DNA of 64,000 bases from positions 116,839 to 180,838 of IMG/VR virus record IMGVR_UViG_3300024999_000034, one strand, 5' to 3'. A program made the position numbers and the translations under genes. The notes beneath the pieces are model-generated. The model made no database searches and was not told where the DNA came from. It saw only the letters and a list, made by a program, of their open reading frames with translations. Below, piece by piece: positions 34,225 through 43,633 of the stretch (position 1 is its first letter; every line of letters starts with the position of its first letter). Source of the DNA: a virus.

Positions 34225-34608
34225 ATGTTGCAACAACAATTTAATCGGGGAGAGATATGGTTAGTTGATCTTCCATTTACAGGTAATTCAATTCAAGGTG
34301 GAGGCATTAGGCCAGTTGTGTTGTGTAGTAATAATATGGCAAATCTACATAGTCCAATTTTACATTATGTTCCTCTTACAACTCGTAAGAAACCATCCCT
34401 CCCTACTCACACAGAAATTGACACAGATAGCGGAATAATTAGAAAATCTACTGTACTATGTGAACAAGTTATGCCATTACCAAAAACGGCTTTCAAAGAA
34501 TGTATAGGATTCTGCAATGAAAAAGTAATGGATAAGGTTGATTTTTGTCTAGCTGTGCATTTAGGTTTGGTTAAACTTGTGAATAGAAATAATGTTGCTT
34601 ATGGTTAA
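34225..34608 (+). CDS. mazF: MazF/PemK-family endoribonuclease without an adjacent MazE
   Basis: RGEIWLVDL, GGIRPVV (catalytic Arg), PLTT (catalytic Thr), LPTH, VLCEQV, MDKVD. Confidence 0.9.
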   Translation: MLQQQFNRGEIWLVDLPFTGNSIQGGGIRPVVLCSNNMANLHSPILHYVPLTTRKKPSLPTHTEIDTDSGIIRKSTVLCEQVMPLPKTAFKECIGFCNEKVMDKVDFCLAVHLGLVKLVNRNNVAYG

Positions 34609-34637: not shown

Positions 34638-36242
34638 TTGGGTAAAAATAAAACTACAGAGCAGTATAGACAAGAGTTAGAAGAATATAATTTAAAATAT
34701 AATACAAAAATAAAGTTAAAGAATGGAGTTGAATATAATGGTGCTAATACTAAAATATTACATATTTGTTCGTGTGGTAAAGAGTGGTTAGTTTCACCTT
34801 CAGGCGTTATAAATAGTAGTTCGAAAACAAGTTGTGGTTTATGTTATACGTTTGCAGAAAAAGGAATCGATAATCTAGGGTATAATTTTTTAGAAAAATA
34901 TTGGGATTATAAAACAAATAACGAATTAGGAATTGATCCTTGGAAAATTAGTTGTAGTTCTGGAAAAGATGTTTATATATTTTGCCAAGAGAAAGATTAT
35001 CATGGAAGTTATAAAGTACGTTGTGTTGATTTTAGTAATGGAAGTAGGTGTGGTTATTGTCAAGGATACTATTTGGTTCATCCTTTAGATAGTTACGGAC
35101 AGTATTTAATTGATTCATTTGGAATAACCGCAATAGAACTGTATTGGGATTATAATATAAACACTGTTGATCCTTGGAAGATTACAAAACAATCAAATAA
35201 GATGGTATATATTAAATGTCAGAGGAAATATTATCATGGAAGTTATGGCATCAAGTGTAATGATTTTGTAAGAGGTGATAGATGCGGATATTGTGGAGGT
35301 AAAAAAGTACATCCATTGGACAGTCTAGGAACACTACATCCAAAATCACTAGAATTATGGTCAAATATAAACAAAAAATCACCATATGAATATATGTCTG
35401 GAAGCGATATGGAAGTTTGGTTTAAATGTGGCAACAAGAGACATGAAGATTACCAAAAAAGAATATATAATGCAGTAAATTGTAATTTTAGATGTCCAGT
35501 ATGTTCTCAAGAGCAAAAAGAATCTGTCATGGCCTCCACACTAAAGCAGGTATTAAGATATGAATACAGTCATACAAAATGGGAATATGACGCAGGATTT
35601 AAAATAGATAATAATATTAGTAGGTATGATATTTATGTTCCAGAATTGAATAACTTATTAATAGAATGCCAAAGTGAATATCACGATGATGAAAAACATA
35701 TTATTAACGATCAACTTAAAAAACAGTTTGCTATTGATAATGGATATGAATTTATAGCAATAGATAAAAGAGATTTTACAATAATAGAAATACTGAAATT
35801 TTTTATACCACATATAGATAAAATCCCTGATTATATACAAATAAATAAAAATACAACAAGAAGCTGGGACATAGAAAACGCTCAAAAACTACTAGATACT
35901 GGTCATACATACATAGATATAGCCAATATATTAGAAACGTCAGCTACAGCAATACGTGCAAGTGTAGGCGATAATGGTTTAATTAAACCAAATAATTATA
36001 TTTTCCAAGGTGCAAATATAGTTTGTTTATCTATGGATAATAATTTAATAAAAACATATAATTCATGTACTTCTGCTGCCAAAGATTTAGGAAAAGCAAA
36101 TGGAACAAGTATTAGTTCATGTTTGACTAAAAAGCCTCGTTCAGATACTGGGAAAATACGTGAAACAGCTTTTGGTTTTAAATGGATGTATCTAGTAGAT
36201 TATGAGAATATGGTCAAAGATCAAAATAATAAACCTCCGTAG
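34638..36242 (+). CDS. Homing-endonuclease-like protein: repeated zinc-ribbon modules, PD-(D/E)xK/Vsr-like nuclease domain, NUMOD1-like C-terminus
   Basis: Repeated W...C..K..H..Y......G.RC.YC units; RYDIYV...LIECQSEYH...DQLKK; IKTYNSCTSAAKDLG...TAFGFKWMY. Confidence 0.7.
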   Translation: MGKNKTTEQYRQELEEYNLKYNTKIKLKNGVEYNGANTKILHICSCGKEWLVSPSGVINSSSKTSCGLCYTFAEKGIDNLGYNFLEKYWDYKTNNELGIDPWKISCSSGKDVYIFCQEKDYHGSYKVRCVDFSNGSRCGYCQGYYLVHPLDSYGQYLIDSFGITAIELYWDYNINTVDPWKITKQSNKMVYIKCQRKYYHGSYGIKCNDFVRGDRCGYCGGKKVHPLDSLGTLHPKSLELWSNINKKSPYEYMSGSDMEVWFKCGNKRHEDYQKRIYNAVNCNFRCPVCSQEQKESVMASTLKQVLRYEYSHTKWEYDAGFKIDNNISRYDIYVPELNNLLIECQSEYHDDEKHIINDQLKKQFAIDNGYEFIAIDKRDFTIIEILKFFIPHIDKIPDYIQINKNTTRSWDIENAQKLLDTGHTYIDIANILETSATAIRASVGDNGLIKPNNYIFQGANIVCLSMDNNLIKTYNSCTSAAKDLGKANGTSISSCLTKKPRSDTGKIRETAFGFKWMYLVDYENMVKDQNNKPP

Positions 36243-36297: not shown

Positions 36298-36996
36298 ATG
36301 GATTTAATCACACTAGCAACAAAAACGACATACAAATTATTCAAAGTAGATGAAGTAATTGACTCATTTGATCAAAAACACTTTAATATTGTTAAGATAA
36401 TAGTAAAAAAATATAGGAATATGGACATTGAAGCAACAAAATCTCAAGTACAACAATTAGCCGAAAACGGAATTAGGAATTTTTGGAGTGAGTTATTTAA
36501 GTATATAATTGTATTATCAATTGCAAGTTATTTTAATATATTTACTCCAACTTTCTTTGTAATGAATGCTTTCTCTGTCCTCAGAGCATTGGCTGGTGGC
36601 GTACATATGTCTACCATAGGAAAATGCTTTGCAATGATGGTTCTATTCTTCTTATCACTAGGATATTTAATTAGTATATTACATATAAATACGTTAGTAT
36701 TAGTCGTAGGAATATCATTGGGGTCTATATGGAGCATATACATAGCTAAAAAATATTCTCCACAGGAAAGACCAGATAAATCAGATAAAGATTGTGATCA
36801 CGGCAATATAAAAAAGTATAAGACAATAAAGTTTATTAAATTCTCGTATATAATTAGTATGATATTAATATTGTTTACTCAAAAATACATAATTGGGATT
36901 AGTATATTTACAGGTGTTTTACTTGAGATGGTAACAATTACACCTAGAGGAACGAGATTTTTTCAATGGATAGATAGTAAGAAGGTGACACTATGA
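36298..36996 (+). CDS. agrB: AgrB-family autoinducing-peptide processing membrane protease
   Basis: LRALAGGVHMSTIGKC with His and Cys 7 apart (catalytic pair), YSPQERP, multiple TM helices, C-terminal TP. Confidence 0.9.
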   Translation: MDLITLATKTTYKLFKVDEVIDSFDQKHFNIVKIIVKKYRNMDIEATKSQVQQLAENGIRNFWSELFKYIIVLSIASYFNIFTPTFFVMNAFSVLRALAGGVHMSTIGKCFAMMVLFFLSLGYLISILHINTLVLVVGISLGSIWSIYIAKKYSPQERPDKSDKDCDHGNIKKYKTIKFIKFSYIISMILILFTQKYIIGISIFTGVLLEMVTITPRGTRFFQWIDSKKVTL

Positions 36997-37619
36997 TCGA
37001 AGTGGTAGTGTTTACATTCGTTTTTGCATGGTTCAATGGTTATAAGTGGAAGGTATTAAATTTGTTTAAGCATTGGAGCATATACCCCATTGCACTTACT
37101 TGTGTTGCTCATATTTATATTATATATCTTATGGTTCATGGTCAATATTGGTTTATGGAATATGCCAAATACATAAAAATTGTATCTATATTACTTTACT
37201 TAGGTTTGATTTGTAAATATAAGTTATTCGACATATCTATCTTTAAGAAAATTAATATTAAAGAGAACCCTATATTAACCCCTTTTACATCTCCTGTTTC
37301 TTTAGGTGTATTATGCATGGGTATAGGATCTGTCTTAAATATTATTGCTATGAAATTTAATGGTTCAAAAATGCCTGTTTTTGCGAGTGTAAGTTTTGGT
37401 ACAGGATATTCAAAAATAGATATGTTTGATAAAATGTTACAGTATAATGACTTTCATGTATTTGGAAACAGTGCTACACATTTGATATTTTTAACCGATT
37501 TCATAGATATTTTTACATCCATTATGAGTATCGGTGATGTATTAACTAGAATATTTGTTGTTTTAGTAATATATTACTCAATAAAAGTATGTAATCATAA
37601 AGTAATAAATAATATTTAG
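36993..37619 (+). CDS. DUF5317-like integral membrane protein, translationally coupled to agrB
   Basis: GSVLNIIAMKFNGSKMPV and LTDFIDIFTSIMSIGDVL motifs; ATGA overlap. Confidence 0.7.
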   Translation: MIEVVVFTFVFAWFNGYKWKVLNLFKHWSIYPIALTCVAHIYIIYLMVHGQYWFMEYAKYIKIVSILLYLGLICKYKLFDISIFKKINIKENPILTPFTSPVSLGVLCMGIGSVLNIIAMKFNGSKMPVFASVSFGTGYSKIDMFDKMLQYNDFHVFGNSATHLIFLTDFIDIFTSIMSIGDVLTRIFVVLVIYYSIKVCNHKVINNI

Positions 37620-37648
37620 TTGACAAACAGTGAAGGGAGGTGTATACT
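37620..37648 (+). promoter_or_regulatory. sigmaA promoter for the membrane-receptor + agrD transcript
   Basis: TTGACA-N17-TATACT. Confidence 0.75.
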
Positions 37649-37687: not shown

Positions 37688-38476
37688 ATGTTGGAAAATA
37701 TCATTTATTGTGCGTTGAGTTGTATTTTTATCACGATCCCAGAAGACATTTTTCTAATAATATTAACGCTAAGATTTATGGGAAGAAAAGAGATGTTGGA
37801 TTTATACAATATTAAAGAAAATTTAATTTCGATTTTAAAAATTGTTATCCCTTCGGCATTGTCTTTAAATCTTTTAAATTTTATAATAATGACACCAACT
37901 TCAATTAACAAAATAATATCTTATACTATGTTGTATTTGTTATTGGTATACATATTAAAAAAGAAATCTTTTATTGAATATCCAAAATTATATCAAAAAG
38001 CTTTTCTATATTTTATCTTAAGTATATTAGTAATAATAGCTATTGAAATTATTACCTTGCCAATTATATTTAAATTAGTTAATAAAACATATAAAGAAAT
38101 TCAGGTAAATTATTATTTAGTCATAATATGTTCTCTGTCTTCTAGAATTATAAATCTAATAATATTGTTCACTATTTTTATGAAGAAGAATAGTAAATTT
38201 CAAATAAGTATTGGTAATTATATATTTAATAATAAATTTTTCACAAGATTATTGATTGGTGTCACGGCAGGATTGGTTGTATCTGAGGCATACTTTGTCA
38301 AGTTAATTTTGTGGAATAACTTTTTAAATATCATTCCAACAATTTACGAACAATTGTTGTTAGTTATAAGTTTTACTTTTTTAGTACCAAGTTTGATAAT
38401 TTCAATAGTTTATTCTTGTATAAATTATTGTGTTATGATTATTAATAGTGAGAAGCAGACTTTCAGAAATGACTGA
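37688..38476 (+). CDS. Multi-pass membrane protein resembling an AgrC-type sensor domain with no kinase domain (copy 1)
   Basis: About 7 hydrophobic helices over 262 aa, no H-box or HATPase; sits between agrB and agrD. Confidence 0.6.
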   Translation: MLENIIYCALSCIFITIPEDIFLIILTLRFMGRKEMLDLYNIKENLISILKIVIPSALSLNLLNFIIMTPTSINKIISYTMLYLLLVYILKKKSFIEYPKLYQKAFLYFILSILVIIAIEIITLPIIFKLVNKTYKEIQVNYYLVIICSLSSRIINLIILFTIFMKKNSKFQISIGNYIFNNKFFTRLLIGVTAGLVVSEAYFVKLILWNNFLNIIPTIYEQLLLVISFTFLVPSLIISIVYSCINYCVMIINSEKQTFRND

Positions 38477-38515
38477 TCTGATTTTTCAAATACATTATAG
38501 AAGGAGGTGAAAATA

Positions 38516-38623
38516 ATGAAAAAGAATATCGTAATTGGTTTTGTAGCAATCGCTGCTTTTGCAGCAGTAATGTCTTCAATGGTAGTTTGGCATCAATCGG
38601 AAACTCCTAGTTGTATCGCGTAG
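38516..38623 (+). CDS. agrD: AgrD-like cyclic autoinducer propeptide, 35 aa (MKKNIVIGFVAIAAFAAVMSSMVVWHQSETPSCIA), absent from the ORF track
   Basis: AAGGAGGTG RBS; MKK plus hydrophobic leader; ring candidate SMVVW followed by HQSETP, matching the clostridial AgrD tail HQPEEP. Confidence 0.8.
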   Translation: MKKNIVIGFVAIAAFAAVMSSMVVWHQSETPSCIA

Positions 38624-38640
38624 TACATATCCATGATCTA

Positions 38641-38669
38641 AGGAGGGAGTATTTATACTCTCTCCTTTT
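38641..38669 (+). terminator. Intrinsic terminator after agrD
   Basis: AGGAGGGAGTAT/ATACTCTCTCCT hairpin followed by T run. Confidence 0.75.
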
Positions 38670-38697: not shown

Positions 38698-38727
38698 TTG
38701 ACATATTATCCACTGTTGTAGTATAGT
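38698..38727 (+). promoter_or_regulatory. sigmaA promoter for the HTH-MazF gene
   Basis: TTGACA-N18-TATAGT. Confidence 0.65.
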
Positions 38728-38779: not shown

Positions 38780-39601
38780 ATGATTAATATGTTTTTCAAT
38801 ACAAAAAAGAGAAATGAGACTGTTAAATCAAATGAGGCAAAGGATTTCAAGAAGCTTGCAAACTTAGTAAAAATAGCCGTTGGAAGCAATACTATTTCAG
38901 AGTTTGCAAACAGATGTGGTATTCCAAATTCAGCTAAAAGTATTGCTATGATTACTCAAGAAAAAATAACTACATACCCAGAAGTCGGTTTGCTTAAAAA
39001 AATTGCTTTGGGTTCTGAATTTCGAGTATCTTTTAATGATTTAAGGATTGCATGTGGTTATGATTTAAATGATACAGGGATTGATCTTAGAGGTGTAAAA
39101 GCTATGAGGGGTTGGATTGCCTTATGTAACTATGGGAACGTTTTAGACTCAGAACAATCTGGAATTAGGCCTTCCTTAATAATTTCCAATAATATTGGGA
39201 ATGAGAGAGGGACTATTTTGATGGCAATTCCTTTATCTAGTAAAATAATGAAAAATACTATGCCGACCCACGTCAGAATTGGCCCCAAAGACTGCGGATT
39301 GGCACAAGAGTCAGAAATTTTAGTTGAGCAGATGCGTGTAGTATCAAAAAGTCGTTTAATGATTGATGGGTTCATTCAACCAATTTGTGAATGTCCTGAA
39401 GACATACTCCGTAAGGTAGAAATAGCCATCATGAAGGAAACTGGTATGGTGAATACTAGAGCCAATGAATCTACAGTAGATAGATTCCTTGATAAACTTA
39501 ATGAATATGTAAATAAAGCAGAAGAAAGTCGTATCAATCACATTCAAAGCAATAATCGCAACACAATTCCACAACAACAGAGAGTAGCATCTTTTGCATG
39601 A
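38780..39601 (+). CDS. XRE-like HTH fused to a MazF/PemK domain
   Basis: N-terminal TISEFANRCGI...PEVGLLKKIA...DLRIACGY; C-terminal SEQSGIRPSLIISN...IPLSS...MPTHV...ILVEQMR. Confidence 0.85.
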   Translation: MINMFFNTKKRNETVKSNEAKDFKKLANLVKIAVGSNTISEFANRCGIPNSAKSIAMITQEKITTYPEVGLLKKIALGSEFRVSFNDLRIACGYDLNDTGIDLRGVKAMRGWIALCNYGNVLDSEQSGIRPSLIISNNIGNERGTILMAIPLSSKIMKNTMPTHVRIGPKDCGLAQESEILVEQMRVVSKSRLMIDGFIQPICECPEDILRKVEIAIMKETGMVNTRANESTVDRFLDKLNEYVNKAEESRINHIQSNNRNTIPQQQRVASFA

Positions 39602-39694: not shown

Positions 39695-40495
39695 ATGCAA
39701 GCAATTACAAATGCCATCCTAAACACCATATTCGTTGGCCTCCCTGAAGAAATGTTCATTGTAATAATCACATTATCACTTCTAAAAATCAATGATCTGC
39801 TAGACATCTTAATGTGGAAACGTAGTCTAACATGGATTATGCTCACAGCATTACCCGTAGCAATAATGGCAAATATCTTCAAATATATTATCATAGTACC
39901 AAAACAAAATTCTATATTGTCAATTATGTTATTTATGATAATTCTTATGCAATACATAGTCATCACCAATAGTTTCAAAGTAAATTTTTCACTAATATTT
40001 AAAACAGCAATCTACACAATCGCAAGCTTTGTAATTGTAGGAATCATTGAATATGCTTACTGTCCACTTCTATTAGCATTATTAGAAAAACCATATAGTT
40101 TTTTCAATGATAATGTAATGTACAATATCCTATGGGCTATTCCAATCAAAATTCTACACTTATGTATTGTTTCCTTAATTCTAGTGAGAAAAAATAGCAA
40201 AGTAAAAATTAATCTGTTTGACTCAATTATTAGAAATAAATTTATTGTTAGTGGTTTGTTGCTAATATTAGCAACCAGAGCATTAGTAGTTAATTATATC
40301 AATAAATTAGTGGAAAATAATAGCATCATGATTCAATTACAATTTATTGATGAATTAATTGCTATTGTTATAATCACATCAATTCCAGTAATATTTGTCA
40401 CATGGTTATTAATGGTAATCAATCATTATTTATGTAAAGAGAAAATGGCTCTGTTGGTTTGTGAAGGAGTTAGTGGAAATGATGACGGTGAGTGA
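39695..40495 (+). CDS. Multi-pass membrane protein, paralog of 37688..38476 (AgrC-like sensor without kinase, copy 2)
   Basis: Shared IF..(I/L)PE(D/E).F, IE....P, K.Y and KNSK..I....I..NKF motifs; similar length. Confidence 0.65.
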   Translation: MQAITNAILNTIFVGLPEEMFIVIITLSLLKINDLLDILMWKRSLTWIMLTALPVAIMANIFKYIIIVPKQNSILSIMLFMIILMQYIVITNSFKVNFSLIFKTAIYTIASFVIVGIIEYAYCPLLLALLEKPYSFFNDNVMYNILWAIPIKILHLCIVSLILVRKNSKVKINLFDSIIRNKFIVSGLLLILATRALVVNYINKLVENNSIMIQLQFIDELIAIVIITSIPVIFVTWLLMVINHYLCKEKMALLVCEGVSGNDDGE

Positions 40496-41166: not shown

Positions 41167-42552
41167 GTGAAGGAGAGATATTTAATGCTTAAAGAAAAAT
41201 CAGTTGAGTTAATGCAAGAATTAAATCCATTGATCGTTAAATATTCTAGTAATGACAAGGTAAGAAAAATAATTTTAAATGAGTTTTCCAAAAGGAATAT
41301 GAGTGGTCGGTTGGCACTATCTATTTTAAACGAGAAAAGAGTATTATCAACATTAGATATCGATGAAGGGAAAGACTTGATATTATTATTTGTTTTTACT
41401 AGTGCAATGTACAATGCATTGACATTTAAAGAAGCAGATGATAAAGAACCTTTGGGAGAAATAGAAGAGTCATTTAAAATAACTCTCGAAAACTATTTTA
41501 CTGAAATTGAGATTGAAAGTCTATTAAACCACACATTTGAAAAAAAAGTTGATGAAAAAGATGAGGCTATTGTTTTTCCAAAAATGAATTTGATTGCTCC
41601 TGGATTTTATTCTGGGTATATGTCTGGAAAACATTTTGCTGAATTAGATGCTGGAAATGAATTCATCTATAATTTTAAAACCCAGCGTGATCCAATTATT
41701 AATGTATCTGGAATGAAAGAAATACATTTAAATAAGAAAAACGCAAAAGAAATTAGAGATGGTTTGCTTTCAGGCGATCAATTCCCAACTACTATAGTGG
41801 TAAATGTTCTTCGAGATGGATCAGACGAAATAATCTACAACGAAAAAAATGGAGACTTGACTATTGTTTCAGGAACTAAAAACCTTGTTGACGGAATGCA
41901 TAGAAAAGTGGGTAATAGCTTAGCCCTTGCTCTTAATCCAGATTTGCAATTTAATTGGTTGTTAGTTGTGATAAACTATAGCGAGGTTAGAGCGCAAAAA
42001 TATATGGTTGAAATTAACAAGCAACAAAAAATGAAGCAGGAACATGTTGATAACATGGATACTTCTAATCTTGGAAACATTGTTGTAGACAACATTAAAG
42101 ATATTGACAACGCTGAATTCTCTGGGCATATTAAAGACAGCGATAAAGAACTAGAACATGGTGGTATGGTAAAAAAATCAACATTAGCAACTAGTATAGA
42201 AGAGTGTTACAAGGATAAACTAACTAATAAAATTGAAGCAAAAAAGATAGCAAAGCATATTGCTAATGTTGTAGATTATGTTATAGGATTACACGCAGAA
42301 GAGTTTATAGAGCATTCTGAAGCTACTAAGAAAGAAAGTTATATCAATCATAAGAATATGTTTGCAGGATATGTTGCCTTATCTGAAAGATTATATGAAG
42401 TAAAGGATTGGGAAGATTTATTAGAAGAAATTCTTAATCAAATTGATTTTAGTGTTAAAAATTCTTTCTGGAAAGATATTGGAATATCAGATTCAGATAT
42501 GAAAAAGTCTACCAGAAACAATTTATATAAATTCTTTCAGAAATTAGTTTAA
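41167..42552 (+). CDS. DndB/ParB-like (DGQHR-type) protein, SPbeta YopQ-like
   Basis: FPTTIVVNV and LVDGMHR motif; position ahead of a recombinase-fold gene. Confidence 0.6.
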   Translation: MKERYLMLKEKSVELMQELNPLIVKYSSNDKVRKIILNEFSKRNMSGRLALSILNEKRVLSTLDIDEGKDLILLFVFTSAMYNALTFKEADDKEPLGEIEESFKITLENYFTEIEIESLLNHTFEKKVDEKDEAIVFPKMNLIAPGFYSGYMSGKHFAELDAGNEFIYNFKTQRDPIINVSGMKEIHLNKKNAKEIRDGLLSGDQFPTTIVVNVLRDGSDEIIYNEKNGDLTIVSGTKNLVDGMHRKVGNSLALALNPDLQFNWLLVVINYSEVRAQKYMVEINKQQKMKQEHVDNMDTSNLGNIVVDNIKDIDNAEFSGHIKDSDKELEHGGMVKKSTLATSIEECYKDKLTNKIEAKKIAKHIANVVDYVIGLHAEEFIEHSEATKKESYINHKNMFAGYVALSERLYEVKDWEDLLEEILNQIDFSVKNSFWKDIGISDSDMKKSTRNNLYKFFQKLV

Positions 42553-42586: not shown

Positions 42587-43633
42587 TTGGTTATTAATGA
42601 AGTTAATAATGGGTTGCAAAATGAAGAGGTGGTATTTGAGGTTGATTCAGAAGTGAAAAAGGAATTTCTAGAAAAACAATTAAAGTCAACTAGAAGTTTC
42701 TACACTTATGTTCTCAAAAGAGCAGATGAATTTGAATCACAACTTGGGAAAAAGATTTACGATTTTAATATTGAAGATCGCGATGAGATGTTGACTGTTC
42801 AGTTTAAGAATAAGAATAAATGGACGTTTCAATCTGCATTATCTCCTTTAAAAACTTATGTTGACTTCTGTATTTCTAAGAATTTAGTTAGACACAATGA
42901 AAACAGGTTTATGACTATTCTTCCGTCAGATTATGATGATTATGTTAGTGATCAAGCAAAAAACAGTTCTTATATCCCTTTATCAGAATCCAGAGAATTT
43001 CAAAAAAGATTAGCAAATGATCAAGATAAATTAATCATTGAATTATCTAGTTTAGGGGTTAGGGGAAGAACTGAAAAAGGCAATACACTTGAAGAGTTTG
43101 TAAATCTCAAAGTAAAAGATATTAAGTGGAAAGATAAGGAATTATGGCTCACTAAAAACAATGGGGAGCAAAGGTATATCAATGTTGATGATTATACTTT
43201 AGATTTACTAAAACGAGTTATTAACCAAACTTTCTATGTATCTAACAATGGATTAAAGACTAAAAAGAATGATTTAGGAGAATTCGAAAAGACTAATAGA
43301 GGCAGGGCTATAAGTCCGACTGAGTATGTTTTTAGAGTTCCAGGAAAGAATAGAAAAGGCAAAGTTGCTTATCAATTTTTTACTAGCAGAATTCAACGGA
43401 TGCAAAGTTGGTTAGAAGCTCCGTATTTAAATAGTTCTAATTTATATTTTTCTGCAATTTTAGATTATGCAAAAAACATGTTAGATGAGAAAAAAGCAAA
43501 AGGAGAAAAAGCAGAATTAACTAGAGAAGAATATATTCGAATTAATGAAAGATTTGAATTTGGTGAAAACGGAGAAAAATATGTGTTTAAGACTAGAGAT
43601 TTAGTTAAAATGCACTTTGGTAACGGAGAGTAA
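42587..43633 (+). CDS. Tyrosine-recombinase-fold protein with a degenerate active site, SPbeta YopR/MrpR-like master repressor candidate
   Basis: SAM-like N-domain (LSPLKTYVDFC), LGVRG...EFVNLKVKDI box I; the HxxR box is replaced by SNLYFS; no obvious C-terminal catalytic Tyr box. Confidence 0.65.
   Translation: MVINEVNNGLQNEEVVFEVDSEVKKEFLEKQLKSTRSFYTYVLKRADEFESQLGKKIYDFNIEDRDEMLTVQFKNKNKWTFQSALSPLKTYVDFCISKNLVRHNENRFMTILPSDYDDYVSDQAKNSSYIPLSESREFQKRLANDQDKLIIELSSLGVRGRTEKGNTLEEFVNLKVKDIKWKDKELWLTKNNGEQRYINVDDYTLDLLKRVINQTFYVSNNGLKTKKNDLGEFEKTNRGRAISPTEYVFRVPGKNRKGKVAYQFFTSRIQRMQSWLEAPYLNSSNLYFSAILDYAKNMLDEKKAKGEKAELTREEYIRINERFEFGENGEKYVFKTRDLVKMHFGNGE

Follow-up and report, generated by a model that had tools for sequence, protein, structure and literature searches.

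A phage-borne AgrD-type propeptide with a predicted serine-closed ring, encoded in an AgrB-DUF5317-X1 cassette

A 35-residue open reading frame in a viral genome is, judging from its sequence and its relatives, very probably the real precursor of a cyclic signalling peptide whose ring is closed by a serine. The gene, agrD, lies on the + strand at positions 38516..38623 of a 64-kb window, the whole stretch of DNA analysed here, which forms the final part of a 180.8-kb IMG/VR virus record (CheckV completeness 85%) and has all its large ORFs on the + strand. The assignment to the AgrD type draws on the ORF itself, its score against TIGR04223, its homologues and its substitution pattern. Among related bacteria, AgrDs with a Ser ring are in the minority but common, and the peptide thus adds one more member to an established family rather than a novel type of molecule; the cassette that surrounds it is more unusual than the peptide itself.

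The reading frame extends from an ATG at 38516 to a TAG at 38621-38623 (35 codons), and re-reading the sequence showed that both these bounds and the numbering of S21, W25 and C33 had been given correctly in the preliminary description. A consensus ribosome-binding site, AAGGAGGTG (38501..38509, + strand), was read directly from the sequence and ends 8 nt upstream of the ATG; a GTG at 38507, in frame with agrD, falls inside this site, which makes a start there unlikely. The gene is followed on the same strand by an intrinsic terminator composed of a hairpin and a T run (38640..38669), the 12-bp hairpin (38640-38667) reaching a folding energy of -18.1 kcal/mol (z = -2.7). Both elements are kept in the related phage contigs L003 and L004, in agreement with the strong ribosome-binding site and own terminator ascribed to agrD earlier. 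The exact peptide is called as a nameless gene on 21 public contigs, and one of its homologues carries the IMG name 'cyclic lactone autoinducer peptide'.

The ORF shows the features of an AgrD propeptide in being short (35 aa) and in having a hydrophobic N-terminal leader (residues 5-19) after a Lys-Lys start, a stretch that also resembles an ordinary signal peptide. The curated cut-off of TIGR04223 is 19 bits; the 35-aa form reaches 18.5 bits and a 38-aa version starting at the GTG 19.1 bits. Taken alone, a score at or just under the cut-off is borderline, and the case for AgrD therefore rests on the relatives. The same model matches 19 of 20 aligned family members at E <= 1, and when the complete 180.8-kb record was searched with it in six frames, agrD was the single match (17.2 bits, E = 0.0014).

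Relatives were gathered by several routes. Scans of IMG/VR with the neighbouring proteins and the conserved flanking DNA gave five contigs (L003, L004, L022, L026 and L027) that have a common synteny and a homologous small ORF. A six-peptide profile run over 1.84 billion representative proteins picked up 11 peptides, 34-40 aa in length, with E values from 6e-16 to 3.5e-4, and close variants were added by cluster look-up of these matches, giving 17 further non-redundant relatives and 18 members with the window peptide. All sources of the relatives are metagenomes. Comparison of the locus (blastn) and the peptide (tblastn) with 50,697 phage GenBank records gave no match; a scan of viral contigs with an 18-nt pattern gave 16 matches, mostly due to chance, with the peptide present only in relatives already known; and a profile scan of genome contigs with the HTH-MazF alignment yielded no relative, while with the DUF5317 alignment the yield was limited to two MAG loci of differing gene order (L034 and L035). 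Two longer proteins were discarded. P0001 (3176 aa) was taken as a false positive, with 13 matching stretches of which the best falls on the hydrophobic-leader part of the profile, and P0010, a 212-aa metagenome protein (E = 1.7e-8), consists of a tandem 13-residue repeat mimicking the Trp-His-Gln-Ser-x-Thr-Pro tail and is most likely a translated DNA repeat without relation to AgrD.

Within the window, all the genes described below are on the + strand. A stand-alone MazF (34225-34608, domain match) and a zinc-finger/NUMOD1-domain protein (34638-36242, domain matches DUF4379 and NUMOD1) precede agrB (36298..36996), which encodes the presumed processing and cyclising peptidase of 232 aa (Pfam PF04647, E 2.8e-24) and is the sole AgrB gene of the 181-kb record. 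The start of the next gene, for a DUF5317 membrane protein of 208 aa (36993..37619; Pfam PF17248, E 8.9e-16), overlaps the agrB stop. A promoter-like site, TTGACA-17 nt-TATACT, recognised by consensus match only (37620..37648, 11 of 12 positions), is followed by the ORF of X1 (37688..38476), a 262-aa membrane protein without a known family located directly upstream of agrD. The peptide gene is thus 1.5 kb downstream of agrB with two genes in between, and pairs with X1, apparently on a separate transcript; the arrangement suggests that X1 and agrD are probably co-transcribed from their own promoter. A second promoter-like site (38698-38727) precedes the gene for an HTH-MazF fusion (38780..39601; PemK_toxin, E 5e-21), after which come X2 (39695..40495), a 266-aa paralogue of X1 (about 25% identity) without a peptide gene of its own, a DndB-like protein (41167-42552) and an MrpR-like integrase-fold protein (42587-43633; MrpR_N_CB, E 3.6e-13). 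The succession of a DndB-like and an MrpR-like gene, 2.5-4 kb downstream of agrD, is the layout of the SPbeta master-repressor region. The agr cassette is also bracketed by the two MazF-domain genes, one stand-alone and the other with an N-terminal HTH-like region, and no MazE-like antitoxin was recognised near either of them.

The order AgrB, DUF5317, X1, AgrD is kept at all 10 loci with a complete readable upstream flank, which comprise nine phage-type loci (the window, L003, L004, L022, L027, L028, L068, L070 and L071) and the bacterial-looking L031. L026 starts at a contig edge, where only the end of X1, agrD and HTH-MazF are visible; with this contig included, HTH-MazF lies 3' of agrD in 10 of 10 phage-type loci with a readable downstream flank. 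Every relative with readable flanks, on 10 phage-type contigs and one bacterial-looking contig, follows one and the same gene order. The context of four profile-found peptides, on contigs of up to 251 kb, reads MazF, endonuclease, AgrB, DUF5317, X1, peptide, HTH-MazF, X2, DndB-like and MrpR-like. DUF5317 adjoins AgrB in all phage loci, in L031 and in the two Clostridia MAG loci.

The bacterial-looking contig, of higher GC, carries the four-gene core of AgrB, DUF5317, an X1-like protein (248 aa) and AgrD at L031:1856-4930, so the cassette is not restricted to phages. Its peptide, P0013, has a canonical acidic AgrD tail, and the neighbouring genes encode transporter, capsule and aldolase functions. 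A convergent HTH_3 gene (called as 273 aa; longest ORF 303 aa) replaces HTH-MazF after agrD. The two MAG loci, L034:5001-8673 from an Oscillospiraceae MAG and L035:4533-8531 from a Clostridiales MAG, show the order DUF5317, a 164-169-aa membrane protein, AgrB and a Cys-ring AgrD, followed by a membrane protein of 555-557 aa that combines GGDEF and HD-GYP domains; they may represent an agr-type peptide system that feeds c-di-GMP rather than a kinase.

The divergence among the closest phages is informative about how the gene evolves. Against its closest allele (L004), the codon changes of the window agrD are synonymous in 7 cases and non-synonymous in 5; for both Ser codons, that of S21 included, the change is a synonymous one, and three of the five non-synonymous changes fall on the three ring-interior codons, all of which are replaced, with 6 of their 9 nucleotides altered. 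This substitution pattern shows selection. Relative to L003, nucleotide identity drops to 62% in the agrD ORF, compared with 88% in the non-coding flanks. X1 is the fast-evolving partner of AgrD, diverging quicker than AgrB and DUF5317 in the closest phage pairs: between the window and L004 identity is 90% for AgrB, 87% for DUF5317 and 61% for X1, and between L022 and L027 it is 85%, 95% and 67%, respectively. Between the window and L028, X2 keeps 88% identity, though X1 is only 38% identical in this pair and the peptides differ; for L004 and L022 the X2 figure is 87%. This mosaic identity, which does not track the agrD allele, suggests that X2 is swapped without regard to the X1-agrD pair.

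With just 35 codons in AT-rich surroundings, where short ORFs abound, agrD could in principle be an untranslated chance intergenic ORF. We consider this extremely improbable, since the ORF, ribosome-binding site and terminator are conserved in more than ten contigs, synonymous changes are in excess outside the ring, and the profile matches reach E = 6e-16 in the 1.84 billion proteins searched. On the sequence evidence, the conservation pattern effectively refutes a chance origin.

The position of the predicted ring was deduced from an alignment of the 18 non-redundant members, scored by column relative to an invariant Trp. The column of S21 (Trp -4) contains Ser in 12 of the 18 members and Cys in the other 6, with no other residue, and the column preceding it (Trp -5) holds S, T, A, P or C. 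The ring-interior columns 22-24 (Trp -3 to -1) have an entropy of 1.9-2.6 bits and form the most variable part of the C-terminal half. Besides the Trp itself (0), the Gln at +2 is invariant and the other tail positions are well conserved. On the basis of the nucleophile column and the Trp, codons S21-W25 (38576..38590, + strand) are predicted to encode a five-residue ring, SMVVW, and codons H26-A35 (38591..38620, + strand), from their conservation and the spacing of P31, the C-terminal tail that AgrB would cut off, 10 residues long with one acidic residue. The spacing in the window, S21-x3-W25 followed by H-Q-x-x-x-P31, places P31 six residues past the ring end and equals that of 29 canonical AgrDs (nucleophile-x4-[H/Y]-[Q/E]-P-x-x-P), two of them from the MAG loci found through DUF5317 and 27 from 400 sampled Clostridia-class genomes. 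The P-x-x-P of the tail is complete in 12 of the 18 members and its first Pro is present in 14, the window allele having S28 instead. When two canonical AgrDs are included under MAFFT default settings, the Trp residues are matched at the cost of a 2-residue gap just behind them. Correspondence with distant AgrDs is therefore argued from the gap-free alignment anchored on the tail and from the Cys alleles within the family, which we regard as stronger evidence than the default alignment.

The S/C-only column and the nucleophile-to-Pro spacing make ring closure at S21 well supported, and with it an AgrD having S21 as ring nucleophile and S21-W25 as ring, for which a lactone is predicted. The preliminary description had proposed a Ser in place of the ring Cys, an SMVVW ring and a chemistry departing from the usual clostridial one, with the Enterococcus peptide GBAP as model. 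The nucleophile and the ring stand by comparison; the notion that Ser is unusual among Clostridia does not, as 5 of the 29 canonical clostridial AgrDs sampled have a Ser nucleophile. Together with a published clostridial Ser lactone, this count means that GBAP is not the closest precedent. In sister phages the S21 position is occupied by Cys, which makes Ser just one of several allele states rather than the hallmark of the phage system. The ring diversity for which an alignment of related phage AgrDs had been suggested is indeed present, with three hypervariable interior residues and a Ser or Cys nucleophile.

The only Cys of the window peptide, C33, was rejected as a ring residue: it lies after the predicted cleavage site, leaves only two residues behind it and is replaced by Phe in one member and by Ala in another. 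The Cys-ring AgrDs of L034 and L035, encoded directly after AgrB, also carry a Cys at the equivalent tail position. Being replaceable and found in Cys-ring AgrDs as well, C33 is a feature of the tail that AgrB would remove and not of the ring, as had been claimed.

The mature signal of a genuine AgrD could nevertheless be something other than the simple five-residue Ser lactone, namely a six-residue ring closed from S20 or a head-to-tail lactam, the latter arising by an O-to-N acyl shift once leader removal exposes S21 as the N-terminus; we regard this as unlikely. Esters undergo acyl shift much less readily than thioesters, which counts against the lactam. Of the 12 Ser-type members, 8 have a Ser immediately before the S21 position, and for the window allele taken by itself a six-residue ring closed from S20 would be conceivable. 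Across the family, though, the S20 column has two Ala, one Thr and five Pro, whereas the S21 column never departs from S or C. P0013 has a Cys just before the Ser, and P0011 and P0012 have one three residues upstream of it, which could point to other ring residues; the Cys alleles, the invariant Trp and the Pro spacing, on the other side, fix a five-residue ring. Clostridia are known to have six-residue rings, and Cys peptides without a tail convert to homodetic cyclopeptides; what becomes of Ser lactones that lack a tail was explicitly left open (PMC8251862). The mature product may retain an exocyclic tail, or become a lactam if the Ser is N-terminal.

A further question is whether the peptide is an AgrB substrate at all. 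Its gene goes with X1, in a probable common transcript, and not with agrB; the HMM score is borderline, the tail atypically short and the N-terminus like that of an ordinary signal peptide, all of which would suit a small secreted or membrane peptide working with X1 as a linear signal, subunit or regulator, the likeness to AgrD being convergent or vestigial. We find this improbable. An AgrB with an intact catalytic pair is present at 10 of the 10 loci with a readable upstream flank, including the bacterial-looking one, and the two residues concerned, His103 and Cys110, located 7 residues apart, are invariant in 9 homologues from both Ser-type and Cys-type cassettes. Moreover, a column confined to S or C, a Trp that never changes and a conserved distance to the Pro correspond to what AgrB processing needs and have no other known explanation, and P0013 ends in a canonical acidic AgrD tail.

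As for the receiving side, no match to HATPase_c_5 (PF14501), HATPase_c (PF02518) or LytTR (PF04397) was found in the 180.8-kb record, at its CheckV completeness of 85%, and the canonical AgrC-AgrA route is thus not phage-encoded. X1 gave no Pfam, NCBIfam or PHROG match, and AgrB, DUF5317 and X2 likewise match no PHROG family. Its structure model shows about seven long helices (pLDDT 76.5). Sequence comparison with the PDB gave no match and the fold search nothing significant, its best-ranked entries being weak seven-helix receptors with a TM of about 0.2, and no longer homologue was found among the 460-2000-aa proteins scored. The nearest Atlas protein cluster lacks a Pfam family or name and is 76% viral. 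These searches, over longer homologues, PDB sequences and folds, thus brought out no homology of X1 to an AgrC sensor, and, given also its mostly viral and nameless cluster, the label 'AgrC-like' is unproven for this protein. The model of the DUF5317 protein has a mean pLDDT of 47, too poor for a fold search, and the literature searched yielded neither a mention of DUF5317 nor a paper on the cassette as such.

Both the Ser-closed AgrD, known from Staphylococcus pseudintermedius, Enterococcus faecalis and Clostridium thermocellum, and the phage-borne agr locus, known from phiCDHM1, already have precedents. AgrD Clo1313_2818 of C. thermocellum gives a Ser-lactone pentapeptide detected by LC-MS/MS, with the ring S25-F29 and a conserved Pro, P35 (PMC5322536). 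Like the phage AgrD as predicted, it is a propeptide with a hydrophobic leader, a Ser nucleophile and a five-residue ring, and both have an aromatic/His residue after the ring and a Pro 6 residues past its end. The C. thermocellum gene is bacterial, chromosomal and without a linked agrB, whereas the phage gene is linked to those for AgrB, DUF5317 and X1 and encodes a shorter tail that ends in Cys-Ile-Ala. The canonical clostridial AgrDs (TIGR04223; L034, L035, L038-L067) have a common architecture and spacing with the phage AgrD, but they directly follow agrB, have charged tails of 12-16 residues and score 30-54 bits; the phage family, in contrast, has an invariant Trp at the ring end, a 10-residue tail and a score near 18 bits, with X1 rather than AgrB encoded just before it.

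The AIP of S. pseudintermedius and the GBAP of E. faecalis are Ser lactones (PMC3673130), whose rings are formed via the Ser hydroxyl by AgrB or FsrB, as predicted for the phage AgrD. The GBAP ring is four residues larger than the predicted SMVVW ring, and both peptides act via AgrC/FsrC kinases and show no specific sequence relationship to the phage AgrD. The Clostridioides difficile phage phiCDHM1 carries an agr3 locus, agrC-agrB-agrD, with genes closely resembling those of the host (PMC3901668). AgrB and AgrD are phage-encoded in both phiCDHM1 and the window phage, and neither has a phage response regulator. phiCDHM1, however, has a HATPase_c histidine kinase, while no kinase ATPase or LytTR domain was found in the 181 kb of the window record, and the window cassette adds DUF5317 and X1/X2 and stands just upstream of an SPbeta-type repressor module. 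Its position is also reminiscent of Arbitrium (AimP-AimR-AimX) in Bacillus phages of the SPbeta group, where a peptide cassette precedes the MrpR/DndB-like repressor genes at a distance of a few genes; the likeness is one of position only, as Arbitrium employs a linear hexapeptide and an intracellular TPR receptor and its chemistry is unrelated to that of the phage AgrD. A role of the window cassette in lysis-lysogeny can be inferred only from this resemblance.

Taken together, these comparisons lead us to favour, as the probable reading, that the ORF is a genuine agrD of a large SPbeta-like temperate phage, read with X1 and processed to an S21-W25 ring. AgrB enzymes are known to remove the C-terminal tail, forming an acyl-enzyme that is attacked by an upstream Cys or Ser (PMC3673130, PMC8251862). 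By the same mechanism, residues 1-19 of the phage AgrD, its hydrophobic N-terminus, would anchor the propeptide in the membrane, and the phage AgrB, through His103 and Cys110, would cut between W25 and H26, freeing the 10-residue tail and remaining as acyl-enzyme. The S21 side chain would then attack this intermediate to give a five-residue lactone ring from S21 to W25, and a Cys at this position in the sister phages would give a thiolactone. The leader would be removed by a second protease, for which signal peptidase or the linked DUF5317 protein are candidates. The three ring-interior residues would define allele-specific signals (pherotypes), and the fast-diverging X1 is the best candidate for a partner that reads or handles the variable ring. 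From there, a downstream route could pass via the HTH-MazF protein or via the MrpR-like repressor encoded 4 kb downstream.

That a lactone would be more stable and orthogonal to host signals, and so suit a private phage channel, as proposed in the preliminary description, is speculation. A kinase-free, phage-private form of signalling, in which lineage-specific rings and ester/thioester specificity are read by X1 as a new receptor that acts on HTH-MazF and the repressor and hence on lysis/lysogeny, is a tentative idea that we hold as possible though not probable. What the comparison does display is that, within one large temperate phage family, the nucleophile toggles between Ser and Cys and the ring interior is freely replaced while the leader, the Trp and the tail stay fixed. 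This pattern, a variable ring beside a fast-evolving X1, bears the mark of diversifying pherotypes as seen in staphylococcal agr, and it occurs here in a cassette without kinase and response regulator, just upstream of an SPbeta-type repressor. The locus thereby offers a compact natural set of alleles for the handling of Ser versus Cys by AgrB and for cyclic-peptide communication among phages.
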